The notes beneath the pieces are model-generated. The model did not search any database, was not told where the DNA came from, and was given only the letters and a program-made list of their open reading frames with translations. From positions 130,596 to 194,595 of the forward strand of contig JAWKUH010000006.1 in NCBI GenBank assembly GCA_041398665.1: DNA of 64,000 bases. Direction: 5' to 3'. Source of the DNA: Planctomycetota bacterium. GTDB lineage: Bacteria; Planctomycetota; UBA1135; GCA-002686595. Within the stretch, counting starts at the first letter, position 1. Each line of letters begins with the position of its first letter. The position numbers and the translations under genes are program-made. Shown here piece by piece: positions 1,618-18,184 of the stretch.

Positions 1618-1667
1618 CGCCTCCGACGATACCCCCGGAGCGACCCGGACCGGCGCGGCACGGCCCG

Positions 1668-4090
1668 GTGATCGAAGATCGGCGGGCGGACCGCAGAAAG
1701 GCTCGCGCCGATGCCGACAGAGGAGCGATGGGCTGGGCCCTCCTCGTCGGACTCGTGGCTGCGCTGGGTGCGGCGCTCCTCGGCGTCGCGCTGGTCCGTC
1801 GCAGTCGCCGCGAGCAGCACGGGACGCTGCACGAACGGCGCCGCGCGGAACGCACCGGTGCGGCGAGGGCGGAGCTCCAGCACCCCGTCGTCGACCTGAC
1901 GCGCTGCCTCGGGTGCGGCACGTGCGTGCGCGCGTGTCCCGAGGAGGGCGTGCTCGCGCTGCTGCACGGGCAGGCCGTCGTCGTGCGCGGCTCGGGCTGC
2001 GTCGGGACGGCGAGCTGTGCACGCGAGTGTCCGACCGGAGCGATCACGGTCACGCTCGCCGATCTCGCGACGCGGCGCGACGTGCCGGTGCTCGACGAGG
2101 GACTCGAAGCGGTGGGGCGCCCCGGTCTGTTCCTCGCGGGCGAGGTGACGGCGCACGCGCTCGTGAAGACCGCGGTCGACCACGGCACGCTGGTCGCCGC
2201 GACGGTGGCGGAGCGCGCGCAGCGCGAGGGCGCGGCGCGCGAGACCGGCGTGCTCGACCTCGCGATCGTCGGCGCGGGTCCGGGCGGACTCGCGTGCGCG
2301 CTGGAGGCGAAGCGTCTCGGGCTCGACTTCGTCCTGCTGGAGCGCGAGAGCGACCTCGGCGGCACGGTCGCGCGCTACCCGCGCCGCAAGCTCGTCGCGA
2401 CACGACCCATCGACCTCCCGCTGCACGGTCGGCTGCCCGAGCGCACCTACCTCAAGGAGGAGCTGATCGAGCTGTGGCGCGGGCTCGCCGCGGAGCACGA
2501 CCTGCCCGTCGTGTGCGACTCGACGTTCGAGTCGCTCGACCGGGACGACGCGGGCACCTACACCGTGCACGCGAGCACCGGCGAGGTGCGCGCACGCAAC
2601 GTGTGCCTCGCGATCGGGCGGCGCGGCGTGCCGAACCGGCTCGGCGTCCCGGGCGAGGACGCGCCGAACGTCGCGTACAGCCTGCTCGACGCGGACGCCT
2701 ACGAGGGCGAGCGCATCCTCGTCGTCGGCGGCGGCGACAGCGCGGTCGAGGCGGCGCTCGGTCTCACCGCGCGCGGTGCGAACGAGGTCACGCTGAGCTA
2801 CAGGCGCTCCGACTTCTTCAGGCTCGAGCCCTCGAACGAGCGCCGCATCCGCGAGGCGGCGGCGAGCGGGCGCGTCACGGTGCTGTTCGAGAGCGAGGTG
2901 CTCGAGATCGACGCGGGCGAAGTGCGCCTGCTCGCGCGTTCGGCGGACGTGGCGGGTCGCGGCACGGGCCGCACGAGCACCGACGGAGCCCCGAGCCTGG
3001 TGCCGGGCGGTCCGGGGCGCGTGCACCACGGCGCGTCGCACGAGACGCTCGAACGTCGCGTCGCCGTCTCGACCGAGGCGCGCGCCGAGCTCGTGCTGCC
3101 GTGCGACCGCGTGTTCGTGATGGTCGGCGGCACGCCGCCGATCGCACAGCTCGAGGCGGCGGGCGTCAGCTTCGACCCGACGCTGCGCCCGGCGGCGCCG
3201 GAGATCGGCGAGCAGGGCAGCGGCCTCGTCCGCGCGCTCGGCGCGGGCTTCGCCGTCGCGCTGTTCGGCCTCGCGTTCGCGCTGTGGCACCGCGACTACT
3301 ACCTCCTGCCGACGTTCGAGCGCGCGGCGTCGCCGAAGCACGACCTCCTGCGGCCCGGACTCGGACTCGGGCTGTGGCTCGGGGTCGGGTCGATCGCGCT
3401 CGTCGTCGCGAACCTCGCGTACGTGCTGCGCCGCTCGCCGCGCTCGCGCGTGCGCTTCGGGTCGCTCGCGAACTGGATGACGGTGCACGTCGCGACGGGC
3501 GTGCTCGCGCTGCTCACCGCACTCGTCCACTCCGGGATGGAGCCGCGCGACACGGTCGGGGGCCGAGCGCTGTGGGCCATGGTCGCGCTGTTCGCGACGG
3601 GAGCCGTCGGGCGCTACCTCTACGCCTACGTCCCGCGGGCGGCGAACGGGCGCGAACTCGAACTCGCCGAGATCCGCGGCCGACTCGCGCGTCTGGCGGA
3701 GGGCTTCGTCCGTGTCGACGCGCGACTCGCGGCGCTGGTGCGCGACGAGACGCTGGAGCTGGTCGAGCGGCGGCAGTGGAACACGTCGTTGCCGGCGCGC
3801 CTGCTCGCGCTCGTCGGCGCGGAGACCGGGCTGCGCCGACTTCTGCGCCGCGTGCGGACCGAGGGCGCCGCCGCCGGACTCGCGCAGGACCAGATCGACG
3901 AGGTGACGGAGCTCGCGCGCCGCGCGCACCGCTCGGCGCTCGCGACGGCGCACATCGACGACCTGCGCGGGATCATGGCGAGCTGGCGCTGGCTGCACCG
4001 CTGGGCGCGCTGCTCCTGCTCGTGCTCGTCGCGCTGCACGTGGTCTACGCGCTGGCGTACGGCGGCTACCTCGCGGGAGGCGCGCGGTGA
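1668..4090 (+). CDS. Membrane-bound fusion oxidoreductase: N-terminal TM helix, two 4Fe-4S ferredoxin-type CxxCxxCxxxCP motifs, FAD/NAD(P)-binding pyridine-nucleotide-disulfide-oxidoreductase-like domain, C-terminal 5-TM domain with conserved His. Apparent 1-nt frameshift near 4003-4008.
   Basis: Frame of ORF 1668..8069 gives CLGCGTCVRACPEEG and CVGTASCARECPTG, GAGPGG and GGGDSAVE dinucleotide-binding motifs, then TM helices (FALWHRDYY, WMTVHVATGVLALLTALVHSG). The last TM helix and stop are read in the frame of ORF 1367..4090 (LLLLVLVALHVVYALAYGGYL*). Start could alternatively be M at 1728. GTGA overlap with next gene. Confidence 0.65.
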
Positions 4091-6225
4091 ACGCCGACGA
4101 TCCGCCGCCGCCGTCCGTCGCGTGGTACCGCCGCCCGCAGTTGTGGGTCGCGGTCTGCAGCGCCGTGCTCGTCACGACGCTCGGCGTCGTCGGCAAGGAC
4201 CGCAAGTCGCCGGGTCCGCTCGCCGCGGCGCACGCGCGCGTCGCCGAGCTCGCGGGCGGTGCGAGCTGCTCGGAGTGCCACGGCGGCTGGTTCCAGGACA
4301 TGTCGAGCGCCTGTCTCGACTGTCACGAGGCGATCGAGTCGCAGATGGACGACGGGCGCGGCCTCCACGGGCGACTCGCCGAGGACCGGCGCGCGTGCGC
4401 GTCCTGCCACTCCGACCACCACGGCGCGAACTTCGCCATGGTGAACGACGTCTCGTTCCGCAAGGCGGGCGTGCCGAACGTCGACGCCTTCGACCACTCG
4501 CTCGTCGGCTTCGACATGGACGGGAAGCACGTCGAGCTGGCGTGCACGGACTGCCACGCGCACGCCTTCGACGAGGTCGTCCCGGAGGGCGTCACGCGCT
4601 TCACGGGACTCTCGCAGCGTTGCGCGGCGTGCCACGAGGACGAGCACCACGGCGCGTTCGGCCAGGACTGCGCGAGTTGCCACGTGCAGGAGAGCTTCAC
4701 CGAGCACGTCGCGACGTTCCACGACGACGTCCTCCCGCTGATCGGCGGGCACGGCGGCATGGACTGTCGCGCGTGCCACGCGGAGGGCGAGGTGCACAGC
4801 CTCGAGGTCGTCGCGGGCAACGGCTCGAAGCCGACGGCGCGCGCCTGTCTCGACTGCCACGACTCGCCGCACGGCGAGGCGTTCGTGACCCGCAACGCCC
4901 GCGACTCGCGCACCAGTCTCGAGGCGTCGTGCGTCGTCTGTCACGCCGCGGCGCACACGAGCTTCCGCGACGAGGCGCTCGAAATCACCGCGGAGCAGCA
5001 CGCGGCGTCGGGCTTCCCGCTCGCGCTGCCCCACGACGAGGTGACGTGCGACGGATGCCACGCGCCGGAGCCGGAGGACTTCGCCGCGCGCTACCCGGGT
5101 CGCGACGCCGATCGTTGCGCGGCGTGCCACGAGGACCCGCACGGCGGGCAGTTCGCGACGGGACCGTTCGCGCAAGAGGGCTGCGTCGCCTGCCACGGGC
5201 GCGAGCGCTTCGAACCGCACGGTTTCACCGCGGAACTGCACGCGCGGGCCGCCCTGCCGCTCGAGGGCGGTCACCTCGGGGCGGCGTGCGAGGACTGCCA
5301 CACCGTCGCCCACGACGGCGAACCGCGCACGTTCCGCGGCACGAGCGACACGTGCTCGGCGTGCCACGAGGACGCGCACAACGGGTTCTTCGACTCGCGC
5401 ACACAGGCGCTCGAACCGGTGGCGCACGGCGACTGCGCGCGCTGTCACGGCGCGACGGCGTTCGCGCAACTGGTGCCGGAGAGCTTCGACCACACGCGCT
5501 GGACGGGCTTCCCGGTCGACGGCGCGCACGAGGCGGAGGGCTGCGCGAGCTGTCACGCGAGCACGGCGGAGCCCGACGCCGCGGGCCGCACGTTCGGACG
5601 CGTCGCGCCCGAGCACGGCGAACTCGTCGCCATGCACGCCGGGCCCGAGGTCGGCCGCTCGTGCGCGGCCTGCCACGAGGACCCGCACGGCGGCCGCTTC
5701 GACGCGGAGGGACTGCCGGAGCGGTACGACGAGCGCGAGGGCTGCGCGCGCTGCCACACCGACGCGTCGTTCCGCGACCTCTCGCGCGGCTTCGACCACG
5801 GACTGTGGACCGGTTTCCCGCTCGACGGCGCGCACGGCGAACAGTCGTGCAGCACGTGCCACGCGCCGCTGCGCGCACCGACGACGGAGGGGCGCACGTG
5901 GGGCTTCGCGAAGGGCGCGGACTGCGCGTCGTGCCACGCCGACCCGCACGGCGGTCAGTTCCGCGAGCGCGACGCGCAGGGGACCCTCGGAGCGACGGAC
6001 TGCGCGCGCTGCCACCAGAACACGACGTCGTTCGCGAAGCTGCGCTTCCGCCACAACTGGGACTCGCGCTTCAAGCTCGACGAAACGCACGCGAAGGTGG
6101 ACTGCGCGCAGTGCCACCGCCCCGAGGTGATCTCGGGTGCGCCGACGTTCCACTACAAGCCGCTCGGAACGAATTGCACGGACTGCCACGGGGTGGGGGC
6201 GAGTTCGCTGAGGAAGGACGGGTAG
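4087..6225 (+). CDS. Periplasmic multiheme cytochrome c, about 23 CxxCH motifs, paired-CXXCH / cytochrome c7-like repeats, N-terminal signal anchor
   Basis: 712-aa ORF with roughly 23 CxxCH motifs (CSECH, CLDCH, CASCH ... CTDCH), many in CH..DxH / doubled arrangement. Hydrophobic N-terminus LWVAVCSAVLVTTLGVV without lipobox. Confidence 0.85.
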   Translation: MNADDPPPPSVAWYRRPQLWVAVCSAVLVTTLGVVGKDRKSPGPLAAAHARVAELAGGASCSECHGGWFQDMSSACLDCHEAIESQMDDGRGLHGRLAEDRRACASCHSDHHGANFAMVNDVSFRKAGVPNVDAFDHSLVGFDMDGKHVELACTDCHAHAFDEVVPEGVTRFTGLSQRCAACHEDEHHGAFGQDCASCHVQESFTEHVATFHDDVLPLIGGHGGMDCRACHAEGEVHSLEVVAGNGSKPTARACLDCHDSPHGEAFVTRNARDSRTSLEASCVVCHAAAHTSFRDEALEITAEQHAASGFPLALPHDEVTCDGCHAPEPEDFAARYPGRDADRCAACHEDPHGGQFATGPFAQEGCVACHGRERFEPHGFTAELHARAALPLEGGHLGAACEDCHTVAHDGEPRTFRGTSDTCSACHEDAHNGFFDSRTQALEPVAHGDCARCHGATAFAQLVPESFDHTRWTGFPVDGAHEAEGCASCHASTAEPDAAGRTFGRVAPEHGELVAMHAGPEVGRSCAACHEDPHGGRFDAEGLPERYDEREGCARCHTDASFRDLSRGFDHGLWTGFPLDGAHGEQSCSTCHAPLRAPTTEGRTWGFAKGADCASCHADPHGGQFRERDAQGTLGATDCARCHQNTTSFAKLRFRHNWDSRFKLDETHAKVDCAQCHRPEVISGAPTFHYKPLGTNCTDCHGVGASSLRKDG

Positions 6226-6305
6226 GTCCGAGCTCCGCAGACTTCCTCGAACTCCACTCCCGTCGCGCGGCGGAGGCGGCCGATCTGCTCCCTCCGGGGT
6301 CCTCC

Positions 6306-8069
6306 ATGCGAAGGAACGGGGCGGGGAGAGCGGCGGCGGCGTGGACCGCGGTGTGGGTGCTCGCGGGTGCGGCTTCGGCCGACGGCGCGACGGCTCCCGC
6401 CGTCGACGCGCAGGAGGAGGCGCAGGACGAGGTGCGCCTCGAGCTGCGCGTCACCGTCGTCCTCACCGAGCGGCGCGCGTCGGTCGACCGCGGCGCGAGC
6501 GACGGGCTCGCGGTCGGCGACGTCGTCTGGTTGCTTCCGCGCGAGGGCGGCCGGTTCCGCGCGTCGGTCGTCGCCGTCGAGGAGCGCTCCGCGGTGGTGG
6601 AGCTCGACGGCGCGGACGTCGCGCTGGCCGCGGGGCTGAAGGCCGAGGCGACGGTGCCGGCGTCGCGCTTCGAGAGCGAGGACGGCGCGAGCGAACCGAC
6701 GGGCGCGACCGACGCGCCGACTCCCGCCGCGAACGCTTCGAACGACGCGACCGGTGCGCGTCCAAGCCCGAACTCGATCTGGCGCGACCGCGACGAGGAG
6801 TTCGCGGACGGGATGCCGCTGCTCGCCGGCGTGGAGGCGGTGTCGCCCGGCGACCGCACGCCGTTCGTGCGCGGTCGCGTGTGGCTCTCCGTCGACGGGA
6901 CGTACACGGGACAGGACGGGCGCTCCGACCAGTTCGTGCGCGCGGGCACCGACGTCACGTACGAGAACCCGTTCGGACAGGGAGGCGTGCTCGACCTCGG
7001 CGTCGACTGGGAACGGTTGCGCTTCGACCGTCCCGAGCTCGACGACCTCGCCGACACCGAGCTCCGCTTCGAACGCCTCTCGTACGCCTTCGGCGGCACG
7101 CGCTTCGACGGCGACCGCTACCAGTTCGGGCGCTTCCTGCAACACGGCATGCCCGAGTTCGGCGTGCTCGACGGCGCGGAGTGGTCGCGGCGCACGGACG
7201 AGCACCACAGCTTCGGTGCGAGCGTCGGCTACATGCCCGAACCCGACGCGGAGTACGAGAGCGGACACGACTTCCAGCTCGCCGGCTGGTACCGCTGGAC
7301 GTCGGACGCGACGGAGCTCGCAGCGGCGAAGGTCGGCTTCCAGAAGACCTGGCACGACGGCGCGCCGGACCGCGACCTCGTCGTCCTCCAGGGCCACTAC
7401 CTCCCGCGCGACGGGTGGAGCACGCAGGCCTCGGTGTGGATCGACGCGACGGGCGGCGGCGAGATCGAGGGCTCGGGGCCGTCGGTGTCGCACGCCTACC
7501 TCTCGGCCTCGCCGTACACCGCGAGCCGCTTCGGGCTCGAACTCAACTACAGCTACCTCGACTTCCCGGAGCTCGAGCGCGACGAGTACCTGCCGACCCC
7601 GGCACCGATCGAGATCGCCGACCAGCGCGTCCACCGCCTCGGCGCGGACTGGTGGGTGCCGATGGGGGACGGCTCGCGTTTCACGGGTCGACTCGGCGGG
7701 TGGAGCGACGCGACGAACGACGGCGGCGACGTCGAGGTCGGCGTCGACGTCGTCGACATCGTGGGGCGCGGTTCGCACCTGCGGCCGCTCCTGTTCCTCG
7801 CGCGCGGCGCGGGCACGAGCGTGTGGGGCACGCGGCTCGGACTCTCGTTCGGCGGCGAGAAGGTGCGCTACGACCTCTTCTACGAGCTCGCCAACTACCG
7901 ACAGAACGGGTTCCCCGGGGGCAACGACGACTTCGTGCAGCACCGGCTGCGGACGAGCGTCTCGTGGTACCCGACGCCGCACTGGGCGCTCACCGCGCAC
8001 GTCGACGGCACGACCTACCACGAGGAACGCGGAGCGACGGCGGGGGTGTACGCGCAATGGAGTTTCTGA
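6306..8069 (+). CDS. Outer-membrane beta-barrel (porin-like) protein, putative porin component of a porin-cytochrome complex
   Basis: Signal peptide MRRNGAGRAAAAWTAVWVLAGAASA, acidic linker, then alternating hydrophobic/aromatic beta-strand pattern with many Gly/Asp/Tyr/Trp. C-terminal AQWSF (terminal Phe typical of OMPs). Lies between two cytochrome genes. Confidence 0.6.
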   Translation: MRRNGAGRAAAAWTAVWVLAGAASADGATAPAVDAQEEAQDEVRLELRVTVVLTERRASVDRGASDGLAVGDVVWLLPREGGRFRASVVAVEERSAVVELDGADVALAAGLKAEATVPASRFESEDGASEPTGATDAPTPAANASNDATGARPSPNSIWRDRDEEFADGMPLLAGVEAVSPGDRTPFVRGRVWLSVDGTYTGQDGRSDQFVRAGTDVTYENPFGQGGVLDLGVDWERLRFDRPELDDLADTELRFERLSYAFGGTRFDGDRYQFGRFLQHGMPEFGVLDGAEWSRRTDEHHSFGASVGYMPEPDAEYESGHDFQLAGWYRWTSDATELAAAKVGFQKTWHDGAPDRDLVVLQGHYLPRDGWSTQASVWIDATGGGEIEGSGPSVSHAYLSASPYTASRFGLELNYSYLDFPELERDEYLPTPAPIEIADQRVHRLGADWWVPMGDGSRFTGRLGGWSDATNDGGDVEVGVDVVDIVGRGSHLRPLLFLARGAGTSVWGTRLGLSFGGEKVRYDLFYELANYRQNGFPGGNDDFVQHRLRTSVSWYPTPHWALTAHVDGTTYHEERGATAGVYAQWSF

Positions 8070-8734
8070 AGAACGTGCTGCAGCGCCTCCGCCGCCTCGG
8101 CGTCCCCGCGCTCGGGACCGTCGTGCTCGGCGCGTCGCTCGTCGCGTGCGCGCTCCAGCGCACGGGCGGGCTCGAAGTGCACCGCTGGTGGGCCGGCCTC
8201 GGACCCGTCGTGCCGCACGAATCGTTCCCCGAGGACTGCTCGCTCTGCCACGTCGGCGACACCTGGAACACGCTGCGCGCCGACTTCGAGTTCGACCACG
8301 AGGAACGCACGGGCGTGCCGCTGCTCGGCGCGCACTCCGCGGCGCAGTGCCTGCGCTGCCACAACGACCGCGGTCCGGTGCAGACCTTCGTGCAGCGCGG
8401 CTGCGCGGGTTGCCACGAGGACGTCCACCAGGGGCACCTCGGCACGAACTGCTCGGAGTGCCACGAGCAGAACACCTGGCGCGCCGTCGGACAGGTCGAG
8501 CGGCACTCGCGCACGCGCTTCCCGCTGACCGGCGTGCACGCCGTCACGAGCTGCCAGCGCTGCCACCCCGGAGTCGACTCCGGCCGCGTCGCGCCGACGA
8601 GCACGGAGTGCGTCTCGTGCCACCTCGACAACCTGAACTCCGCCGTCGTGCCCGACCACTTCGCGTTCGGGTGGGTGAACGACTGCGGTCGCTGTCACCT
8701 GCCGACGACGTGGCAGGAAGCGGTCGGCTTCTGA
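8057..8734 (+). CDS. Lipoprotein heptaheme cytochrome c (outer-membrane cytochrome candidate)
   Basis: 225 aa with lipobox LVAC. 7 CxxCH motifs (CSLCH, CLRCH, CAGCH, CSECH, CQRCH, CVSCH, CGRCH). Start overlaps OMP stop by 13 nt. Confidence 0.8.
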   Translation: MEFLKNVLQRLRRLGVPALGTVVLGASLVACALQRTGGLEVHRWWAGLGPVVPHESFPEDCSLCHVGDTWNTLRADFEFDHEERTGVPLLGAHSAAQCLRCHNDRGPVQTFVQRGCAGCHEDVHQGHLGTNCSECHEQNTWRAVGQVERHSRTRFPLTGVHAVTSCQRCHPGVDSGRVAPTSTECVSCHLDNLNSAVVPDHFAFGWVNDCGRCHLPTTWQEAVGF

Positions 8735-8744
8735 CCGCGCGGGA

Positions 8745-10913
8745 TCAGCGCTCCGTCGGGTCCTGCGAGAGGTAGCCCAGACTCTCCAGTTCGTCGCGGA
8801 GGTCGCTCGCGAGGTTGCCGAGGTCGGCGGGTTCCCGGTCCGGCGCGACGGCTCCGTCGACGACGTCCGCGACGCGACGTGCGAGCGCGTCGGGCCAGGA
8901 CGCGTCGGCGCTCCGGATCGGACGGAGCTCGTCGGGATCGGTCGCGAGGTCGAACGCGCGCCGCGGTGAGAGCGCGACGGGGTCGAGCATCAGCTTCGTC
9001 GCGCCGTCCGTCGCCGTGAGGCGGGCGTCGCGCCTCGCGCGGGCGAACGGAGCCGCGTCGTCGCCCGACGTCCACGACGTGAAGGCCAGCGCGTCGTCGC
9101 GCTCCTCGGCGAGGTCGCGACCGCGGAAGCTCGGCGGCGCCGCGACGCCGGCCAGGCCGAGGAGCGTCGGCGCGAGGTCGATCGTCGACGTCGCGTCGCG
9201 CCGCACGCCCGGCTCGACACCGGGGCCGCTCCAGAGCAGCGGCACGCGCGTCTGCGACTCGTACGCCGGACCGATGTGGCGGAACCAGTCGTGGTCGCCG
9301 AAGGCCTCGCCGTGGTCGCTCGTGAACAGGAGGTGCGAGTTGGCGCGCCAGCCCTTCGCGTCGAAGTCGCGCAGCCAGTCGCCGAAGGCGGCGTCGAAGT
9401 CGAGCATCTGCGCGCGGTAGAGCGCGAGGATCTCGCGCATCTCGGGCCGCGCGTAGTCGCCCGACATGCGCTCGAGCAGTTCGCTCTCGCTCGGTCCGTC
9501 CGCCGGGAGTCCGACGGCGACGCGCGACGCGTCGGACGGCTCGAGCGGGTCGTGCGTGAAGTACGTCTGCACGAACAGGAACGTCGGCCGACCGTCGTGG
9601 GCGTCGAGCACGGCTTGCGCGCGCCGCAGGCCGCTCGTGCGGCTCCGCGAACCCTGGACGTACGACTCGAAGCCCTGCGCCAGCCCGAAGGCCGACGACG
9701 TGTACGCGCCGTCCGTGACCGCGACGGTGCGGTAGCCGGCGTCGCGCAGACTCTCGGCGAGCGTCTCGACGCTCGCCGGGAGCGCCTGCGTCGAACTCTC
9801 CACCCGGTGCCCGCGCGGCAGCTGACTCGCGAAGAGCGACGCGTGCGACGGCAGCGTCCACGTCGCCGCGGACCACGAGTTCGCGAACTCGATCGACCCG
9901 CGGCGGAGGCGCTCGAGGTTCGCGAGGTCGAGGTCCCGCGGCGAGTCGGCGTAGCGTCGCTGGGTCGAGAGTCCGTCCGCGCGGAAGGTGTCGGCGAGGA
10001 AGACGACGAGGTTCGGTCGGTCGGGGTCGGTCGGCGGCTCGTCCGACGGCACGGGGCCGAGCATCGGCGCGGCGAACCCCGTGAGGGCGAACGACCCGCT
10101 CGTCTCGAAGCGCAGCGTCGCGCGCTCCGCGATCGGCGGGAGGTCGACGGAAGCGAAGTGGAAGCTGCCCGTCGGCGAGTCGTCGCCGGGGTCGACGGTG
10201 CGCGACCACACCGGTCGGCCGTCGAGCAGCACGCGGAACCGGACCTCGCCCTCGGCGACGGGGAGCGTCGAGAAGCAGCCGAACGAGAGTCGTCGTTCGC
10301 CGCCGGGAGCGATCGTCCGCGCCGTGCTCGTCCCGGGCAGTACGAGCATCCCCTCGCCCGCGTAGGGGCCGACGTCGACGCGCCACACGTCGTCGTCCGG
10401 TTCGCCCACCGGGACGGGGACGAGGTGCTCGATGCGGACCGGTCGCGGCTCGCCCTCCTCGAGCCGCACGAACAGCGCGTCGTCGTTGAAGGAGAACGTG
10501 CCTCTCGGCGCCGACGCGGGGTCGAAGGCGACGTCGCCGATGGCGAGCTGTGTCAGCGGTCGACCGTCGACGACGACGACCTGCTCGATCGGGGCGACGG
10601 CGCTCGTGCTCAGGTTCGGCAGGTGCCGCGGCGCGTAGAACCCGCCCTCGAGGGGCAGCGGCATCCAGGCGTCGTCGTCGTAGGCGACCGAGATCCAGGG
10701 GCGACCGCCGACCTCGACGAGTCGCACGACCGAGCGGTCGTGGCGCGCGATCTCGAGCGGGTACTCGACCTCGCCGTCGTCGAAGTCGGTCGCGAGGTGC
10801 ACGCGACCGGCGTCCGCATCGGGGAGCGCGCGCGGCGCTCCGCCGCAGCCCGCGAGCGACAGCACGACGGCGGTCGCGGCGAGCCGCCGGGTCTGTCGAG
10901 AGGGGCGCGACAT
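8745..10913 (-). CDS. Sulfatase-family lipoprotein (arylsulfatase / alkaline-phosphatase superfamily)
   Basis: Lipobox LSLAGCGG. Sulfatase signatures TWTLPSHASLFASQLP and LLFTSDHGEAFGDHDWF. Confidence 0.75.
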   Translation of the reverse strand: MSRPSRQTRRLAATAVVLSLAGCGGAPRALPDADAGRVHLATDFDDGEVEYPLEIARHDRSVVRLVEVGGRPWISVAYDDDAWMPLPLEGGFYAPRHLPNLSTSAVAPIEQVVVVDGRPLTQLAIGDVAFDPASAPRGTFSFNDDALFVRLEEGEPRPVRIEHLVPVPVGEPDDDVWRVDVGPYAGEGMLVLPGTSTARTIAPGGERRLSFGCFSTLPVAEGEVRFRVLLDGRPVWSRTVDPGDDSPTGSFHFASVDLPPIAERATLRFETSGSFALTGFAAPMLGPVPSDEPPTDPDRPNLVVFLADTFRADGLSTQRRYADSPRDLDLANLERLRRGSIEFANSWSAATWTLPSHASLFASQLPRGHRVESSTQALPASVETLAESLRDAGYRTVAVTDGAYTSSAFGLAQGFESYVQGSRSRTSGLRRAQAVLDAHDGRPTFLFVQTYFTHDPLEPSDASRVAVGLPADGPSESELLERMSGDYARPEMREILALYRAQMLDFDAAFGDWLRDFDAKGWRANSHLLFTSDHGEAFGDHDWFRHIGPAYESQTRVPLLWSGPGVEPGVRRDATSTIDLAPTLLGLAGVAAPPSFRGRDLAEERDDALAFTSWTSGDDAAPFARARRDARLTATDGATKLMLDPVALSPRRAFDLATDPDELRPIRSADASWPDALARRVADVVDGAVAPDREPADLGNLASDLRDELESLGYLSQDPTER

Positions 10914-11115
10914 GGAACAGCGTCGGCTGCGCGCCAGGGTAGCAGCTCGCGTCCGACGATCGCGCGGCGTCACCGACTCGTCCGCGCGATCGACGTCGGC
11001 GCGCGACCGCTGCGCGGGCCGACGTGCGTCGGAGCGGCGACGGAGCGCATTCGCTCAGGACTCTCTCGGGGTTCCCTCCGCGAGCGCCGCGCCGCGTGCG
11101 ACGTAGGTTCGGGCC

Positions 11116-12540
11116 ATGCAGCTCGTCGATCGCCGCGCGTTCCTGGCCCGATCCTCCGTCCTCGTCGCGACGCTCGCCGCCGGACGGCACCTCGTCCCGC
11201 GCGTGCCGCGCGCCGACGTCGAGGCCTTCTTCCGCGCCGTCGCCGCGGGCGACCTCGCCGAGGTCCGCGCGAGGCTCGCGGCGGCACCGGAACTGCTTGC
11301 AGCCGTCGACGAGCTCGGTCGCAGCGGGTTCGCCGTCGCGCTGCTCCGCGGCCGCGTCGAGGTGGCGGCGCACCTGCGGGCCGCCGGTCACGCGCCGGAT
11401 CTGCACGAAGCGGCGCTCGCACTCGACTGGGACCTGTTCGAGCGTCTCGCGACGGCGTCCCCGGGACGAGCTGACGCGCTGCACCCGATCGGCGGGACCG
11501 CGATGCACGCGGCGGCACTCGGGGGAGCGGGTCCCGCCATCTGGCACGTCTACGCCGCGCCGGCGCACCCGAACCCCGACCGGCCGAGCGACCGCGTCCC
11601 CTCGCCGCTGCGCGCGGCGTTCGAGTACGGCGACCTCGAGGTGGCCGAGCTCACCGCCGCCGCGCTGCTCGCCAACGGCGCCGACCCGAACGCGCGCGAG
11701 CCGCGCGGGGACGGCGCGCTCCACGCCGCGGCGCGCCGCGGTTCGACCGAGCTCGTCGAGCTGCTCGTGCGCGTCGGAGCGGACACGCGAGCGCGCGACG
11801 AGGACGGACTCGACGCGAAGGAAGCCGCGGAGCGCGCGGGGGCGAGCGCCGTCGTCGCCCTCCTCGAGCGCGCCGACGAGCTGCCGCGCGACCGCTCGAC
11901 CTCGCGTCGCGCACGCACGGTCGACGGCGAGTCCTACGCGCCGCCCTCGATCGACGACCTGCCCCTCGCGGAGCGGGGCAGGGTCGTCGGGAACGCCCAC
12001 CGCGACCTCGACGCGGTCCGTTCGGCGGTCGAACGAGAGGAACGCTTCGTCCACTCCGTCGCGACGACGACGGAGGGCGCGGTCGAGGCGGCGGCGCACA
12101 TGGGGCGCCGCGACATCGCCGAGTACCTCCTCGAGCGCGGCGCGCCGTGCTCCCTCCCGACGGCTGCGTCGCTCGCTCTGCGGGACCGCGTCGACGCGCT
12201 CCTCGCCGAGGATCCGCTGCGCGTGCACGAGCACGGTGCGCACCGCTATCCGCTCCTCTGGTACGCGGCGATCGGCGACGGCGGCGTCGGACTCGCCGAG
12301 CGCCTCGTCGCGGCGGGTGCGGACGTCGAGAGCCAGCACCACCTCGGGACGACGGCGCTCCACCTGGCGGCGCGCGACGGTCTGACGGACCTCGTCGCGT
12401 TCCTCCTCGAGCACGGCGGCGACCCGACCCGCGTCGGGAGACAGTTCCAGGGTCGGCGCGAGACGCCGATCGACCTGGCGCGGGCGCGCGGGAACGAGCG
12501 CGAGCTCGAACTGCTGGAGCGCGCCGCACGCGCGCGGTGA
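11116..12540 (+). CDS. Tat-exported ankyrin-repeat protein
   Basis: Twin-arginine motif RRAFLARSSVLVATLAAG. Repeated G-x-T/A-LH-AA...G-x-x-x-V-x-LL motifs (GTAMHAAALGG, GDGALHAAARRGSTELVELLV, GTTALHLAARDGLTDLVAFLLEHGGDP). Confidence 0.65.
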   Translation: MQLVDRRAFLARSSVLVATLAAGRHLVPRVPRADVEAFFRAVAAGDLAEVRARLAAAPELLAAVDELGRSGFAVALLRGRVEVAAHLRAAGHAPDLHEAALALDWDLFERLATASPGRADALHPIGGTAMHAAALGGAGPAIWHVYAAPAHPNPDRPSDRVPSPLRAAFEYGDLEVAELTAAALLANGADPNAREPRGDGALHAAARRGSTELVELLVRVGADTRARDEDGLDAKEAAERAGASAVVALLERADELPRDRSTSRRARTVDGESYAPPSIDDLPLAERGRVVGNAHRDLDAVRSAVEREERFVHSVATTTEGAVEAAAHMGRRDIAEYLLERGAPCSLPTAASLALRDRVDALLAEDPLRVHEHGAHRYPLLWYAAIGDGGVGLAERLVAAGADVESQHHLGTTALHLAARDGLTDLVAFLLEHGGDPTRVGRQFQGRRETPIDLARARGNERELELLERAARAR

Positions 12541-12580
12541 CGTTCCGCCTCACCGAAGGGCGCGCGGCTATCCTCGGGCG

Positions 12581-13465
12581 ATGGTGAGGTACCGCTTCGA
12601 CGACTTCGCGTTCGACCCGACGACGGGCGAGATCACGCGCGGCTCGGAACACGTCGCGCGCCTCGCGCCGCAGCCCGCGCGGTTGCTCGAACTCCTCGTC
12701 GAGCGCCGCGGCGAACTCCTCGGACGCGACGAGATCCGCGCCGCCCTGTGGTCCGACGTGCAGGTCGAGTTCGATCAGAGCCTCCACTTCTGCGTGCGCC
12801 AGGCGCGACAGGCGCTCGGCGACTCGGGTCGCGAGCCGCGGTACGTGCTCACGCTGCCGCGCCGGGGCTACCGCTTCGGCGCCGAGGTGGTGATCGAGGA
12901 CGAGCGCGAGGGCGTCCGCGATCCGGCGCCGCCGTCCGCGCACGAAGTCGACGCGAGCCGGGAGACCGCGCCGCCCGCGTCGTCGCGTCGCTCCGCGCGA
13001 CGGCTCGTGCTCGTCGCCGTCCCGCTGCTCGTCGCCGTGCTCGCCGCGGCCGCGTACCTCGTCGGACGCGAGGACGACGTCGTGCTCGCGATCCTCCCGT
13101 TCGAGGTCCCGCAGGCGTTCGCCGCGACCTTCGCGCCGGGCGTCGCGGACGTACCGACGTTGCTCGTCGACCGACTCGTTCGCGAGGAGCGTCTCGCCGT
13201 CGTCGGTCCCACGACGACCGAGGGGCTCGCGGTCGGACCCGCGCCGATCGCCGCGGTCGCCGCCGCGACGGGCGCCGCGTTCGTCGTCAACGCGCGCTTC
13301 GTCCGCGACCCGGAGAGCGGCGGACTCCTCGCGGAAGTCGTGCGCTCGACCGACGGCGTCCACGTGTGGACGCAGCTGTTCGGCCGCGACGCGCGACCGG
13401 AGGAGATCGCCGATGCCGTGGCCGCGGGGCTGCGCTCCGAGCTCCTCCACGGGGATCGGCGCTGA
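12581..13465 (+). CDS. Membrane-anchored CadC/ToxR-like transcriptional activator (OmpR-type winged-helix N-terminus, single TM, periplasmic C-domain)
   Basis: N-terminal trans_reg_C-like region (ARLLELLVERRGELLGRDEIRAALW, YVLTLPRRGYRF) followed by TM helix LVLVAVPLLVAVLAAAAYLV. Confidence 0.7.
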   Translation: MVRYRFDDFAFDPTTGEITRGSEHVARLAPQPARLLELLVERRGELLGRDEIRAALWSDVQVEFDQSLHFCVRQARQALGDSGREPRYVLTLPRRGYRFGAEVVIEDEREGVRDPAPPSAHEVDASRETAPPASSRRSARRLVLVAVPLLVAVLAAAAYLVGREDDVVLAILPFEVPQAFAATFAPGVADVPTLLVDRLVREERLAVVGPTTTEGLAVGPAPIAAVAAATGAAFVVNARFVRDPESGGLLAEVVRSTDGVHVWTQLFGRDARPEEIADAVAAGLRSELLHGDRR

Positions 13466-13618
13466 CCGGATTCTGCGCCCGAGACCGTGCTGCCGACGGA
13501 GGTTGCAGTTCCGTCACGAGGGTCCGTCAAGCGGCCCGTCCCCGCGCTCCGATAGGACCGAGCGGGAAGGTCCGGATCGACGCGCACGAGGCACGCGCGG
13601 ACGATCCATCGCGAGCGG

Positions 13619-16501
13619 GTGACGGAGGGGAGCATGCACCGGACCGAGTCTTGTCTCGGGCGGTCGGAGGGGGCGGACGCGTTCCGTGAGGAGCGCGTCG
13701 GAACGAAGATCGAAGGTCCTGGACGCGGGCGCGCGGCGCGCGCACTGGGAGCGGTCGCGCTGGCTCTGGCCGGGATCGCGGCGACGCTCAGCGGTTGCGG
13801 CGGCGGAGGCGGCGACTCGGGCGCGCTCACGGCGCAGCTCACCTCGTCCTGCATGCTCTGCCACAACGGCGCCTCGTCCGCGCCCTACGCCGGACCGGGC
13901 ATCGAGAACCCGCACCACTTCCCGGGCGCGGAGGACCTCGACTGCGCGGTCTGCCACGGCGGAAACCCGCACGGCGAGTCGAAGGAGGAGTCGCACGTCC
14001 CTCCGCCGCCGCAGATCGGCGACCGCGCGTTCCAGGACACGAACGCGCTGGCGTACTTCAACGCGCTCACGCTGACCGGCATCGACAAGTTCCCGAACTA
14101 CACCGTCGACGGCGTCACGTACACCGGCATCGACTATCTGCAGTTCAAGAACCCCGGCGACCTGCGCGTGACGACCAGCGGTCGCGGCTGCGGACAGTGC
14201 CACGCTCCGCACTCCGACGCGGTGTCGCACTCGATGCTCGCATCGTCCGCGGGCATCTTCTCGGGCGCGTCGTTCGCGATCGGTGCGGACAACGTCGTGC
14301 CGTCGCAGGTCGGGCTGTGGGAAGACACGGCCGCCGACCTCGGTTGGCGCGCGGCGAACGACCCGGCCTTCGACGTCGGGACCGCGGCCGTCGGCGAGGT
14401 CGGGAGTCTCGAGGAGTTCCCGGTCTTCAGCGTGCGCAACAGCACGACGCCTGGCGACATCCACAACAACGACGACTACCTCGTCGACGAGCTGCTCGAC
14501 GACCAGTACGCGGACGGGCGCGTCATCACCGACTCGCCGCTGCACAAGCTCTTCATGGAGCAGGTCGCGTTCACCTGCGGCGACTGCCACCTCGGGAGCC
14601 GCGGCGCGAACAACCGCACGGGCGACTACCGCAGCTCGGGCTGCACGGCCTGCCACATGCCCTACAGCCTCGGCGGCCGGAGCGGGAGCAAGGACCCGCA
14701 CGTCGACAAGACGGAGCCGCTCGATCCCGACGACATCGACGACCCCGAACAGCCGCACGTCGCCGCGCACCGGATCGTCAGCGTCTCGAAGACGCTCTCG
14801 AACGGAACGGTCGTGCAGGGCATGGGCGACCTCACGTGCGCCGGTTGCCACCAGGGCAGCAACCGCACGGTGATGCAGTACTGGGGCATCCGGCTCGACC
14901 AGAACCGCGACGTCCAACGCCACCGCCAGTACCCGGCGAACCCCGTGACGTTCCAGACGACGCAGAACGACACCAGGCTCTTCGACCCGGTGCTCGGGAA
15001 CCACGAGTTCAACGGTCGCGACCATCGTCAGTACCTCGCGAAGGAGGACTACGACGGCGACGGTCGCGACGACACGCCGCCCGACGTGCACCACGAGGCC
15101 GGCATGGGCTGCATCGACTGCCACGGCAGCGTCGACCTGCACGGCGGCGAGGTCGGCGACGGGCGCAACGAGATCCGGTCGCGCCAGGAACAGGGCGTCG
15201 CGATCCGCTGCGAGAACTGCCACGGCACGGCGGACGCGTACGCGCCGACCGTCGCGGGGACGAACTACGCCGGAGCGAGCGGACAGCACGCCGTCGACTC
15301 GCGCGGCAACGTCCTGCGCCACGTCCGTCGCGAGGGCGACGGGAACATGTACCTCTACAGCCGTCTCGACGGCGTGAAGCACTTCGTGCCGCAGACGTTC
15401 GACACGATCGTCGACCACGGCGTCGTCGACCCGATCGGCGGCGGACCGGTCTACAGCGAGGCCGCGTCCTACGCGATGGGACGCATCGACGGCTCGCCGA
15501 GCACCGGTATCGGTCCGCAGCAGAAGAACCACGCGGCGAACGGCTTCAGCCACACCGACAGGCTGGACTGCGCGACGTGCCACGCGTCGTGGACGAACAC
15601 CTGCATGGGCTGCCACCTCGAGGGCGAGTACGACCTCGGCAACAACTTCTCGAACATCACGGGCGAGCGCATCGTGTTCAAGCAGAGGTTCGCCGACTTC
15701 GTCTACCAGTCGCCGCTGATGTTCCAGCTCGGCGTCGACCACAACGGCGAGATCGCGCAGTTCAGCGCGAACACGAAGACGTTCTTCCGCTGGGACGACA
15801 AGGCGGACGCGAGGAGCGAGGTCTTCGCCTTCTCGAACCGCAACGGCGGCGGCAACTCGCCCGTGGCGAGCTTCCCGGCCCTGTCGCACAACGCGATGAT
15901 GGCGCACTCCATCCGCGGGCGCGTCGACGCCCAGAACGAGGGGCCGCGCTACTGCGTGGCGTGCCACCTCACGGACGAGGGCATGACGAACTTCGGCGCG
16001 GACTACGCGGCGTTCCGGACCGCGATCCAGACCGGCGACTACGGCAGCCTCGACTGGACGCTGCTCCAGTCGCACATCGGCAAGAACCCCGGCAACCAGC
16101 TGAACTCGCCGATGTTCGTGCACATGGTGGCCGGACTCGGTTCGGGCATGTTCCTGTTCGACGCGGGCGGTGCGCCGATCAACGACCTCGACATCGACAC
16201 CGCGCGGAAGCCGAACAACGTCGCTCCGAAGACGGTGTACGACCCGACCAAGGTCGTCTACGACCTCGACCGCATCGTCGACGAGTCGGGCCTCTCGTTC
16301 GCGTCGAACAACCACATGCTGCTGTCGCCCGGCATGGCGAACGCGACGCGCGACGGAGCGACCGACACGAACATGGCGGGCCCGCTCGGCGTGACGCTGC
16401 TCACGCTCCTGGCGGACCCCACGGGCGGTCTCGTGCTCGACTCGTGGTACGACGCGGACGGCCTGCCGCGAGGCAATGCGTCGGACTACGTCGGTCCGTA
16501 G
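13619..16501 (+). CDS. Large lipoprotein multiheme cytochrome c (11 CxxCH), outer-membrane cytochrome candidate
   Basis: 960 aa with lipobox ATLSGCGGGGG. CxxCH motifs CMLCH, CAVCH, CGQCH, CGDCH, CTACH, CAGCH, CIDCH, CENCH, CATCH, CMGCH, CVACH. The N-region before the lipobox is unusually long, so the true start may be an internal non-ATG codon. Confidence 0.8.
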   Translation: MTEGSMHRTESCLGRSEGADAFREERVGTKIEGPGRGRAARALGAVALALAGIAATLSGCGGGGGDSGALTAQLTSSCMLCHNGASSAPYAGPGIENPHHFPGAEDLDCAVCHGGNPHGESKEESHVPPPPQIGDRAFQDTNALAYFNALTLTGIDKFPNYTVDGVTYTGIDYLQFKNPGDLRVTTSGRGCGQCHAPHSDAVSHSMLASSAGIFSGASFAIGADNVVPSQVGLWEDTAADLGWRAANDPAFDVGTAAVGEVGSLEEFPVFSVRNSTTPGDIHNNDDYLVDELLDDQYADGRVITDSPLHKLFMEQVAFTCGDCHLGSRGANNRTGDYRSSGCTACHMPYSLGGRSGSKDPHVDKTEPLDPDDIDDPEQPHVAAHRIVSVSKTLSNGTVVQGMGDLTCAGCHQGSNRTVMQYWGIRLDQNRDVQRHRQYPANPVTFQTTQNDTRLFDPVLGNHEFNGRDHRQYLAKEDYDGDGRDDTPPDVHHEAGMGCIDCHGSVDLHGGEVGDGRNEIRSRQEQGVAIRCENCHGTADAYAPTVAGTNYAGASGQHAVDSRGNVLRHVRREGDGNMYLYSRLDGVKHFVPQTFDTIVDHGVVDPIGGGPVYSEAASYAMGRIDGSPSTGIGPQQKNHAANGFSHTDRLDCATCHASWTNTCMGCHLEGEYDLGNNFSNITGERIVFKQRFADFVYQSPLMFQLGVDHNGEIAQFSANTKTFFRWDDKADARSEVFAFSNRNGGGNSPVASFPALSHNAMMAHSIRGRVDAQNEGPRYCVACHLTDEGMTNFGADYAAFRTAIQTGDYGSLDWTLLQSHIGKNPGNQLNSPMFVHMVAGLGSGMFLFDAGGAPINDLDIDTARKPNNVAPKTVYDPTKVVYDLDRIVDESGLSFASNNHMLLSPGMANATRDGATDTNMAGPLGVTLLTLLADPTGGLVLDSWYDADGLPRGNASDYVGP

Positions 16502-16504
16502 GTC

Positions 16505-16625: not shown

Positions 16626-16639
16626 GACCAGCGGCGGAC

Positions 16640-18184
16640 TCAGTTGTGCAGCGACTCCGTGCGCTTCACGAGCAGGCCCTTGAGCCGGCCCATGACGTTG
16701 CTGTGGATCTGGCAGACGCGGCTCTCCGTGAGCGCCAGCATCTCGCCGATCTCGCGCATCGTGTGGCCGTACTGGTAGTACTGCTCGATGATGAAGCGCT
16801 CCTTGTGCGTGAGGGAGCGCGTGATGAACTTCATCAGGTCGCGGCGGTTGAGCTCGTGGACGGGGTCCACCGCGTCGTGGTCCTCGAGGACCTCGACCTT
16901 CTCGACCGCGCCGTCCTCGTCGTCGTCCCACTTCTCCGAGAGGGAGAACATGGCCTTCGCCTGGGACTCGTTGAGCTCCTTCGCGAGCTCGTCGTGCGTC
17001 ATGCCGAGCACTTTCGCGAGCTCGGAGTGGGTCGGCTCGCGCCCGAACTCGCCGGTGAGCTGCTGGAGCGCGCGTTCGATCCGGCTCCACTTGATGCGCA
17101 CGAGGCGCGGCACCCAGTCCTGCGAGCGCAGTTGGTCGAGGATCGAGCCGCGGATGCGGGTCGAGCAGTAGGTCTTGAACTTGATGCCGCGGTCCGGGTC
17201 GAAGCCGCGGATCGCGTCCATCAGTCCGAACTGCCCCGCGCTGACGAGGTCGTCCAGCTCGATCGACTTGGGCAGCGTCTGGAGCAGGCGCTCCGCGATG
17301 TAGCGCACGAGCGGGTAGTGGCGCTCGATCAGCTCGTTGCGCAGTCGCTCCAGCTCGGGCGACGTGATCTCGCGCTTGCGCGACGTGACCTCGGGCGAGT
17401 CCTTGGTGACGCCGAGCTCCTCGGCCATCTCGACCATGAGCCGATCGCTCTCGACCCGGTAGGCGTCCCACAGGTCGTCCGTCGAGACGTCCGCCATCTC
17501 GTCGTCCGGCGGTTCGACGTCGACGGAGTCGTCCTCCTCCTCGATCTCCTCGGCCTCCGCCTCGGAAGCCTCGAGTTCCTGGTCGACGGCCGCCTCGGCG
17601 TCCTCGTCGGTGCGCATGAGTTCGGCCGGTTCCGTGCGCTCCTCCGACCGCGACCTGGACGGCAGCGCGGCCTTGGCCTCCTTCGCCGGCTTCGCCGCGG
17701 CCTTCTTCGACGAGCCGGCCGCCTTCGTGGCGGCCCCCGACTTCGACGAACCGGTGGCGCCGGCGGCCTTCGTCGACTTCGCGGCGGCTCGGCCGCGGGC
17801 GCGCTCGGGCACGATCTCGTTGGTCTCCGTCAACTCGACCTCGGTCCTGCTCTTCGACTTCGTGTTCTTGGAAGCGGCGCTCGCCGACTTCTTCTTCGAG
17901 GACCCGGTCTTCGCCTTCGGCGCCGGCTTCGCGGACCCGGCGGCAGCCGACTTCGCAGGCTTCGACGCCTTCGAAGTCGCTTTCGCGGGTGCCTTCGCGC
18001 CGGCCTTCTTCGCGCCGGCGGAGCTCTTCGCGACCTTGCTCGCGGACTTGCTCGCCGAGCCCTTCGACGCCGCGTTCGACCTCGTGGTCGAGCCGCGCGA
18101 CGCGGTGCTCGGGGAAGCTTTGGTCGACCGCTTCTTCGAGCGATCGGCGGACGTGCTGCGGGCGGAAGAGCGCTCGGCGGCCAT
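16640..18184 (-). CDS. FliA/WhiG-family (sigma-28-like) RNA polymerase sigma factor with ~280-aa Lys/Ala/Ser-rich histone-H1-like N-terminal extension and acidic linker
   Basis: C-terminal half has FliA-type regions 2 and 4 (DLVSAGQFGLMDAIRGFDPDRGIKFKTYCSTRIRGSILDQLRSQDWVPR, TMREIGEMLALTESRVCQIHS). N-terminus is AK(S/P)-rich low complexity (AKKAGAKAPAKATSKASKPAK...) then EEIEEEDD. Confidence 0.8.
   Translation of the reverse strand: MAAERSSARSTSADRSKKRSTKASPSTASRGSTTRSNAASKGSASKSASKVAKSSAGAKKAGAKAPAKATSKASKPAKSAAAGSAKPAPKAKTGSSKKKSASAASKNTKSKSRTEVELTETNEIVPERARGRAAAKSTKAAGATGSSKSGAATKAAGSSKKAAAKPAKEAKAALPSRSRSEERTEPAELMRTDEDAEAAVDQELEASEAEAEEIEEEDDSVDVEPPDDEMADVSTDDLWDAYRVESDRLMVEMAEELGVTKDSPEVTSRKREITSPELERLRNELIERHYPLVRYIAERLLQTLPKSIELDDLVSAGQFGLMDAIRGFDPDRGIKFKTYCSTRIRGSILDQLRSQDWVPRLVRIKWSRIERALQQLTGEFGREPTHSELAKVLGMTHDELAKELNESQAKAMFSLSEKWDDDEDGAVEKVEVLEDHDAVDPVHELNRRDLMKFITRSLTHKERFIIEQYYQYGHTMREIGEMLALTESRVCQIHSNVMGRLKGLLVKRTESLHN

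Follow-up and report, generated by a model that had tools for sequence, protein, structure and literature searches.

Three neighbouring plus-strand genes in a 64-kb window of Planctomycetota DNA encode an ankyrin-repeat protein (Ank), a ToxR/CadC-type transmembrane regulator (Reg) and an 11-haem lipoprotein cytochrome. The window is the whole stretch analysed here, 64,000 nucleotides of contig JAWKUH010000006.1 from a metagenome-assembled genome with ~72% GC. Our analysis indicates that the region of the three genes is probably a composite of two independent units, a cytochrome gene that belongs to a conserved conduit cluster and an ankyrin-regulator cassette. The comparison of related loci and the position of an operator-like repeat carry this reading. 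An initial annotation of this DNA was upheld in part: its genes, their architecture and the link to a nearby conduit stand, and its three-gene module and binding of Reg in the gap before the cytochrome gene are not supported. The features concerned are:

8745..10973, minus strand: sulfatase-family lipoprotein gene (Pfam Sulfatase, 100 bits), the first gene of an inserted segment
11054..11073, plus strand: predicted Reg operator, direct repeat CTCAGGACT-ct-CTCGGGGTT with an 11-bp period, ending 43 nt before the ank start codon
11116..12540, plus strand: ankyrin-repeat protein, 474 aa (Pfam Ank_2 83 bits, cutoff 27.3), with a signal of the twin-arginine translocation (Tat) type
12581..13465, plus strand: ToxR/CadC-type transmembrane regulator, 294 aa (Trans_reg_C, PF00486, residues 27-99, 52 bits, cutoff 26.2)
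13619..16501, plus strand: 11-haem lipoprotein cytochrome, 960 aa with the GTG start as annotated; the last cluster gene in relatives, displaced here by the insertion

The three plus-strand genes of the initial annotation are borne out by open reading frames, codon-position GC, Pfam matches and motif counts. The coding signal is strong in all three, with a GC content of 0.90-0.94 at third codon positions (GC3) and 0.49-0.57 at second positions (GC2). The gap from ank to reg is 40 nt and that from reg to the cytochrome gene 153 nt. The cytochrome is 100% identical to NCBI R3F34_03595. The start conserved in its relatives is ATG 13634 behind GGAGG, which gives a protein of 955 aa and a gap of 168 nt from reg.

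An insertion splits the cytochrome gene from its cluster

The synteny of the cytochrome was compared in 80 genome loci and five further contigs, queried with the window's proteins, which gave 83 non-redundant cytochrome loci. Gene content, synteny and motif conservation were read directly from these sequences. Homologues of ank and reg were sought within 10 kb around the cytochrome at E up to 1e-3, and none was found in any of the 83 loci, including the closest relative with 77% identity. The sulfatase gene likewise has no counterpart at the same position in these loci. Loci L083-L087, with cytochromes 73-77% identical to the window copy, keep the window's downstream genes (a FliA-like sigma factor, adenine phosphoribosyltransferase, arginyl-tRNA synthetase and ABC-F) and have adjacent genes for a 7-haem lipoprotein and the 11-haem cytochrome, without ank or reg. 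In the window, these two cytochrome genes are parted by a 4.9-kb segment (8735-13618) with the sulfatase gene on the minus strand, ank and reg. Because related loci lack the cassette, and the closest ones have the 7-haem and 11-haem genes side by side, we take this segment to be a lineage-specific insertion.

In 17 other loci, the same junction is occupied by unrelated genes over 0.9-8 kb. Among their products are a PRC-barrel protein, a LysR regulator, a hybrid kinase with an HDOD protein, AsnB, CotH and a SurA-like protein. The junction behaves as an operon boundary that is tolerant of insertions. The initial annotation had read the three genes as one module and had named a lack of co-conservation beforehand as the result that would speak against it. 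The cytochrome loci without ank or reg contradict that module.

An operator-like repeat lies upstream of ank

A direct repeat of the form CTCAGGGTT-N2-CTCAGGGTT (CT[C/A]AGGGTT-N2-CT[C/A]AGGGTT) is found 36-108 nt upstream of the ankyrin or ankyrin-like gene in all 17 non-redundant cassettes. For 14 of these cassettes, the observed repeat score was above that of every one of 300 shuffles, and many loci outside the matrix-building set also carry the repeat. When the matrix was built without the window, 11054-11073 ranked first of the 127,962 positions in the window with 15.3 bits, compared with 7.1 for the next best. Between reg and the cytochrome gene there is no such repeat, and the best score of this matrix within 13466-13633 is -10.4 (rank 1297). 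Reg is predicted to bind within 11030-11115 at CTCAGGACTctCTCGGGGTT, and not within 13466-13633. Since the repeat precedes ank and is missing from the gap, autoregulation of ank-reg is predicted, with no direct binding before the cytochrome gene. By binding both copies of CTCAGGGTT, spaced 11 bp apart ahead of ank, the regulator would control its own operon. The initial annotation had placed the action of Reg in the intergenic region 13465-13619, where the operator-like repeat of its family is missing.

Another element, of 11 nt, is common to the regions upstream of ank and of the cytochrome gene (gap copy 13594-13604). It was rejected as a Reg site, since the gap copy lies within a block that is aligned in regulator-free relatives. 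Single perfect half-sites CTAAGGGTT are present ~100 nt upstream of the 11-haem gene in loci L055 (2258-2277) and L077 (3478-3497), with no cassette nearby. They may be coincidence, because chance alone would give ~6 exact ones over the 1.6 Mb scanned.

The cytochrome gene appears to keep an ancestral promoter-like motif

13527..13554, plus strand: promoter-like motif TCAAG-N17-CCGATA, 80 nt upstream of the conserved cytochrome ATG; the sole match in the window
16640..18184, minus strand: FliA/WhiG-family sigma factor (TIGR02479 234 bits, cutoff 189.6), convergent with the cytochrome gene

The gap between reg and the cytochrome gene can be aligned over its last ~100 nt, the motif included, with the gap that separates the 7-haem from the 11-haem gene in relatives. 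The motif at 13527-13554 thus appears to be inherited from this ancestral gap. TCAAG-N15-18-CGA[TA] occurs at the cytochrome position in 43 of the 83 loci (~0.6 expected), whether or not there are inserts upstream. The 11-haem gene would form its own transcription unit, driven by the conserved TCAAG-N17-CCGAT(A/G). Of 45 loci, 21 also have the motif ahead of the cluster head (~1.6 expected); at the cluster head of the window it is absent. Because the same motif precedes the cytochrome gene and the cluster head, both units are probably co-regulated by one factor.

The elements of sigma-28 promoters are TCTAAAG (-35) and GCCGATAA (-10) (PMC12784957). The sequence (C)TCAAG...CCGAT(A/G) has letters in common with both elements of these FliA/WhiG promoters. 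However, its spacer is ~2 nt longer, 17 instead of 15 nt when counted from the G of TCAAG or TAAAG to CCGAT. Recognition of the cytochrome motif by sigma-28 is a lead only. The sigma factor gene of the window adjoins the cytochrome gene only in the closest relatives (four). Its product carries a roughly 270-aa N-terminal extension rich in K, A and S. No sigma-70-like promoter was detected. Within 8000-17000, there was no terminator-like site on the plus strand and no Rfam match. The 5' region of the cytochrome gene shows no unusual folding (z -0.7).

Does the cassette control the cytochrome gene?

The three genes could still work as one functional module, in which Reg senses a periplasmic cue via or alongside Ank and activates the cytochrome gene by binding at 13465-13619. 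The gene order is in favour of this, with the regulator directly upstream of the cytochrome on the same strand. The cadC gene is placed likewise relative to cadBA. CadC is a ToxR-like receptor that activates cadBA (PMC5430869). Furthermore, the closest cassette, at locus L149, also continues into a multihaem gene. Such control is nonetheless very improbable. The cytochrome loci of other genomes do not hold the cassette, and among 63 regulator or ankyrin loci checked for multihaem genes, ~12 of them informative, L149 is the one exception and the other 62 have none. The operator repeat stands before ank and not in the gap, and the promoter-like motif and 5' region in the gap are the ancestral ones, as seen in regulator-free genomes.

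Locus L149 has 78% GC, and its Ank and Reg are 60% and 43% identical to those of the window. A gene with at least 9 CxxCH motifs in its first 294 residues begins 13 nt after reg. Its product is 33% identical to the 23-haem cytochrome of the conduit cluster described below, with the N-termini aligned. Given the 13-nt spacing, this multihaem gene is almost certainly co-transcribed with reg in L149. Directly upstream of the Ank-Reg-multihaem operon, positions 1-5902 of the locus encode T2SS-F twice and T2SS-E, of a type II secretion or pilus-type system. In Shewanella, type II secretion exports surface cytochromes.

Several observations weigh against two independent units. Given the adjacency in L149, chance may not explain why the cassette of this sub-lineage lies beside cytochrome genes. 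In the window, neither a terminator nor a stable structure was detected between reg and the cytochrome gene. The borders of the insert show no flanking direct or inverted repeats or other marks of a mobile element, and the GC3 of the inserted genes is the same as that of the host. The operator consensus was drawn from the sequences on which it was first counted, so that the independent evidence consists of the window test and the extra loci.

Some of these observations would fit read-through, in which transcripts from the Reg-controlled ank promoter run into the cytochrome gene and add to the output of its own promoter, so that the periplasmic signal would modulate cytochrome levels without any site in the gap. 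The genes are on the same strand, the gap is short, and the scan of 8000-17000 revealed no terminator-like site on the plus strand and no unusually stable RNA structure. L149, with its operator upstream of ank and its closely spaced multihaem gene, points the same way. However, the scan may miss terminators in an organism with 72% GC, and 11 of 12 informative long-form cassettes have unrelated downstream genes (a Zn-peptidase gene and the nuo operon in locus L152). A single chance adjacency among about 12 is also not negligible (rough estimate, p about 0.04). We regard read-through as unlikely, and two independent units remains the reading that we prefer.

Ank and Reg as a proposed signalling pair

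A model of Reg by AlphaFold2 (AF2; predicted local distance difference test, pLDDT, 82) consists of a winged helix-turn-helix (wHTH) domain (residues 1-107), a disordered linker, a transmembrane helix (146-161) and an alpha/beta domain (167-293). The top Foldseek matches are the DNA-binding domains of ToxR (8b4b; TM-score 0.88, root-mean-square deviation 1.4, 30% identity) and CadC (5ju7). The architecture and these matches agree with the ToxR/CadC-like membrane regulator of the initial annotation. The CadC model of NCBIfam gives 33 bits against 400 and covers residues 12-122, which are the DNA-binding part and not the periplasmic domain. The outer alpha/beta domain resembles the N-terminal domain of TolB (7mx5_B, E 5e-4), and a JGI source names a homologue 'TolB-like'. 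The sequences before (RRSARR) and after (GREDD) the transmembrane helix fit the positive-inside rule. The model thus predicts a cytoplasmic wHTH domain and a periplasmic alpha/beta domain, connected by a single transmembrane helix and with no receiver domain.

Homologues of the regulator are rare: there were 20 matches, 8 of them full length at 37-42% identity. The motif LHFCVRQxRxALGD lies across helix 64-78 of the model, and its H, C, R, Q and R are invariant in 9 homologues. This conservation makes a DNA site common to the regulator family plausible.

The N-terminus of Ank, MQLVDRRAFLARSSVLVATLAAG, holds a twin-arginine motif. The Tat-type RR signal is kept in homologues, in line with the Tat export proposed in the initial annotation. 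The Ank family comprises >120 clusters, 41-60% identical, from Planctomycetota, Myxococcota, Acidobacteriota and Bacteroidota. Ank is presumed to be the periplasmic partner of the regulator. A metagenome scan for the regulator gave 58 loci, and in all 30 full-length regulator loci with enough flanking DNA there is an ankyrin-like neighbour. The neighbour takes one of two forms, either an ankyrin protein of roughly 480 aa encoded directly upstream on the same strand, or a protein of roughly 175 aa that matches Ank residues 275-387 and is usually encoded divergently. All ankyrin-like partners of the regulator homologues have RR signal motifs. No conserved third gene was found beside ank-reg among about 27 long loci.

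The pairing is also seen from the Ank side. A Trans_reg_C gene lies directly downstream in three of the four informative loci, with Maribacter the exception. The neighbour of the Ank homologue in Maribacter halichondriae was considered as a relative of Reg and ruled out (hhalign probability 0.1). In L152 (7509-15471; Ank 53% identity), reg is followed by the Zn-peptidase gene and the nuo (complex I) operon, a respiratory neighbourhood with no cytochrome gene.

We infer that ank-reg is a self-contained signalling cassette, present across several phyla and apparently undescribed. The Tat-exported ankyrin protein would act in the periplasm on the periplasmic domain of the membrane-bound wHTH regulator. 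Both this interaction and the binding to the repeat are predictions. Ankyrin partners of ToxR-like regulators were found neither in the searchable ToxR-family literature, which is incomplete, nor in a survey of transmembrane regulators (PMC10269533).

The conduit cluster

The initial annotation had noticed a 'Pcc-like conduit' upstream of the three genes. It is real and occupies 1728-8734, with a 23-CxxCH cytochrome, a putative porin and a 7-CxxCH lipoprotein:

1728..4090, plus strand: membrane oxidoreductase with iron-sulphur (FeS) and flavin adenine dinucleotide (FAD) domains, the first conserved gene of the cluster (Pfam Pyr_redox_3 130 bits, Fer4_10 34 bits)
4087..6225, plus strand: 23-CxxCH cytochrome, 712 aa (Pfam Cytochrome_C7 100 bits), with an N-terminal membrane anchor or signal
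6306..8069, plus strand: putative outer-membrane porin, 587 aa, with a signal peptide, no cysteine motifs and the C-terminal sequence ...YAQWSF
8057..8734, plus strand: 7-CxxCH lipoprotein cytochrome, 225 aa, from its lipobox (LVAC) and motif count

The usual order in related loci is (DUF2959), FeS/FAD oxidoreductase, 23-haem cytochrome, putative porin, 7-haem lipoprotein and 11-haem lipoprotein. Completeness was counted in the 58 loci with at least 7.5 kb of upstream DNA. All four partner genes are present in 49 of them, and they are collinear in 48. Of the 79 loci that hold both the 7-haem and the 11-haem gene, 62 have them next to each other in this order. This conserved, collinear synteny strongly supports the idea that the 11-haem protein serves the conduit, as the initial annotation had suggested for the cytochrome and the conduit nearby. 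We infer a conduit that is conserved in the Saltatorellus/Engelhardtia branch of Planctomycetota, with the cytochrome as its likely distal component. No description of this planctomycetal cluster was found in the searchable literature, which is itself incomplete.

The oxidoreductase begins with an N-terminal transmembrane helix, followed by a 4Fe-4S dicluster, an FAD/NAD(P)-type pyridine-nucleotide-disulphide oxidoreductase and a C-terminal region with multiple transmembrane helices and histidines. It is found in 51 loci (median 51% identity), and is 71% identical to the L083 orthologue over 778 aa. In the window, a run of G near 4003 (3995-4010) puts its reading frame out by one base. The conserved C-terminus ...WLHRW|GALLLLVLVALHVVYALAYG (...LHVVYALAYG) runs on in another frame, stops at 4090 and overlaps the ATG of the 23-haem gene. 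The frame change near 4003 is either an assembly error or the sign of a pseudogene; a genuine shift might leave this organism without a working conduit. The histidines in the C-terminal domain are conserved in the oxidoreductase and its orthologues, and no Pfam family covers the domain. A new kind of entry module at the inner membrane, passing electrons from a cytoplasmic donor to the 23-haem cytochrome, is a possible reading.

The 23-haem cytochrome, presumed to be the periplasmic electron wire of the conduit, is found in 61 loci with a median identity of 49%, and its relatives are roughly 700 aa long. The putative porin is encoded between the genes of the two cytochromes in 66 loci (median 37% identity; relatives of roughly 590 aa). 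The 7-haem lipoprotein is found in 74 loci with a median identity of 56%. Electrons would pass from a cytoplasmic reductant to the flavin and FeS centres, through the membrane domain to the 23-haem wire, and from there via the porin to both lipoprotein cytochromes. The direction of this path and the location of the last cytochrome are likewise predictions.

In 34 of 45 loci the cluster begins with a DUF2959 gene, which is missing from the window. At this position the window has a divergent gene (820-2022, minus strand) with a weak match to a VTT/DedA-type membrane domain (30 bits, below cutoff). Three loci encode a protein of roughly 600 aa without a Pfam family between the 7-haem and 11-haem genes (L049, 7835-9616; L050, 7975-9753; L080, 394-2223). 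It may be an additional or alternative component of the cluster.

The 11-haem lipoprotein cytochrome

The cytochrome contains exactly 11 CxxCH motifs, at residues 78, 109, 191, 320, 342, 407, 498, 531, 651, 662 and 779, and a lipobox, LSG-C60. In 40 family members, all 33 residues of the haem motifs and C60 are invariant, as are eleven further histidines outside the motifs. The residue before the lipobox Cys is G, A or S in all 40, and the strict lipobox pattern fits 29 of them. A search for the family gave 908 matches, and the best 120 of these are 59-78% identical and about 920 aa long. Among these 120, named entries are called hypothetical protein or have a generic cytochrome domain, and named sources are nearly all Planctomycetota, including the cultured Engelhardtia mirabilis and Saltatorellus ferox Poly30. 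Across the 83 non-redundant loci, identity to the window copy is 55-78%. A profile search of 1.84 billion representative proteins revealed more distant relatives. Of ten that were checked, three have taxon labels (Myxococcota, 'Deltaproteobacteria' and 'Alphaproteobacteria'); three are named 'hypothetical protein' and one 'multiheme c-type cytochrome', and six are nameless.

The initial annotation had compared this protein to OmcA, MtrC and OmcB. The lipobox, the size and the 11 CxxCH motifs agree with that comparison, and the likeness does not extend to sequence homology with MtrC, OmcA or UndA. None of MtrC, OmcA, MtrF and UndA was matched at E up to 10 in searches of the PDB with phmmer and with a 40-sequence profile, and the Pfam MtrC/MtrF domain (PF22113) gives the planctomycete cytochrome 26.1 bits, below its cutoff of 30. 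UndA has 11 haems. Proteins of the MtrC/OmcA/UndA group have a four-domain fold, made up of two beta-barrel and two pentahaem domains with a staggered haem cross. A classification of the cytochrome from structure was abandoned, as the AF2 model from the 40-sequence alignment has a pLDDT of 53 and its Foldseek comparison was empty.

Some findings tell against a terminal position of this protein in an outward conduit. An outer, terminal role is suggested by three features, the lipobox, the size and the gene order, and the identity of the putative porin by its signal peptide, its C-terminal ...WSF and its gene position; a Pfam scan of the putative porin gave no match. The phmmer and profile searches of the PDB revealed no significant similarity of the cytochrome to any solved or characterised cytochrome. 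Its AF2 model is too poor for use (predicted template modelling score, pTM, 0.53), and with Foldseek this low-confidence model matched nothing in the PDB at E up to 0.001. Moreover, the 11-haem cytochrome is the best-conserved protein of the cluster, with a median identity of 60% compared with 37-56% for its partners, which is unexpected for a surface-exposed electron outlet.

Accordingly, the protein might instead be a periplasm-facing lipoprotein, a catalytic multihaem enzyme, or part of an inward conduit that oxidises extracellular Fe(II), Mn(II) or a cathode. Its high conservation is in line with this, as is an invariant acidic loop, EDYDGDGRDD (E476-D485), beside haem 7. The sole profile matches in the PDB are NrfA nitrite reductases, weak and sub-significant at E 0.003, and the membrane side of a planctomycetal lipoprotein is not readable from sequence. 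On the other hand, the 11 invariant histidines outside the motifs are enough to give every one of the 11 haems bis-His ligation, as in electron-transfer proteins. The order of periplasmic multihaem cytochrome, porin and lipoprotein cytochromes mirrors known outward conduits (Geobacter Ext/Omc). In the 40 sequences, the residue at +2 of the lipid-modified Cys is never Asp. We consider such an alternative role possible, if somewhat improbable, and favour a distal component of an outward conduit. The acidic loop, which resembles a cation-binding site, lies just before haem 7 (14947-15075 in the window, residues 444-486). Such a loop in so highly conserved a protein hints that the cytochrome does more than simply relay electrons.

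Discussion

The planctomycetal cluster can be compared with two well-known types of conduit. Porin-cytochrome clusters of Geobacter encode outer-membrane conduits (PMC12307469). OmaB-OmbB-OmcB and ExtABCD of Geobacter sulfurreducens resemble our cluster in that each combines genes for a periplasmic multihaem cytochrome and a porin-like outer-membrane protein with those for one or two multihaem lipoproteins. The order in ExtABCD (periplasmic cytochrome, porin, lipoprotein, lipoprotein) is the same as that in the planctomycetal cluster. However, no orthology was detected; the NCBIfam models of ExtM, the best match, and of the GSU2203 family give 70 bits compared with a cutoff of 800 and 24 compared with 325. 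In addition, the host is a planctomycete, its periplasmic cytochrome has 23 haems and not 8 to 12, and its cluster opens with the membrane FeS/FAD oxidoreductase. To our knowledge, such an entry gene is not known from Geobacter conduits. The Shewanella proteins MtrC, OmcA and UndA, with MtrAB, are similar in that lipoproteins of similar size and low haem density are encoded beside a porin and a periplasmic multihaem cytochrome. The 23-haem cytochrome differs from the MtrA/DmsE family, with 64 bits against a cutoff of 192 (NCBIfam).

Like ToxR-ToxS, VtrA-VtrC, TcpP-TcpH and CadC, Reg has a cytoplasmic wHTH domain of the OmpR type, one transmembrane helix, a periplasmic domain and no receiver. 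As in co-component systems, an adjacent gene for a presumed periplasmic partner is obligatory, being present in every one of the 30 loci described above. The predicted site of Reg also resembles those of ToxR-like regulators, consisting of direct repeats one helical turn apart. Partners of the VtrC/ToxS type are membrane-anchored, lipocalin-like and encoded downstream, with partly overlapping genes (PMC9214523). In contrast, the partner of Reg is a soluble ankyrin protein with a Tat signal, and its gene lies upstream or, in the short form, is divergent. The periplasmic domain of Reg is similar to the N-terminal domain of TolB and not to those of ToxR or CadC. Furthermore, the bacteria that carry the cassette are environmental ones (Planctomycetota, Myxococcota, Acidobacteriota and Bacteroidota) and not enteric. 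Most work on transcription factors that are bound to the membrane and have a partner protein has so far dealt with enteric pathogens.

In a wider reading, ank-reg would be an undescribed, multi-phylum class of co-component regulator on the ToxRS plan, but with a Tat-exported ankyrin partner, a TolB-N-like domain and an operator of CTCAGGGTT with an 11-bp period, wired by operon fusion to multihaem genes in the sub-lineage of the window and L149. We assign this whole picture a low probability. The junction invaded in 17 other loci, by inserts some of which encode regulators, calls for caution in inferring regulation from gene order.

If our analysis is correct, a branch of the non-anammox Planctomycetota, including the cultured Engelhardtia, Rohdeia and Saltatorellus, would hold a conserved and uncharacterised conduit; Engelhardtia mirabilis Pla133, Rohdeia mirabilis Pla163 and Saltatorellus ferox Poly30 have the cluster intact. 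With 41 haems and an unusual FeS/flavoprotein entry module, it would extend extracellular electron transfer to a phylum in which this process is little known. The ankyrin-regulator pair and its predicted operator would represent a ready-made, widely distributed signalling system. If the wiring by operon fusion also proves true, it would mean periplasm-sensed control of an extracellular electron-transfer conduit in Planctomycetota.

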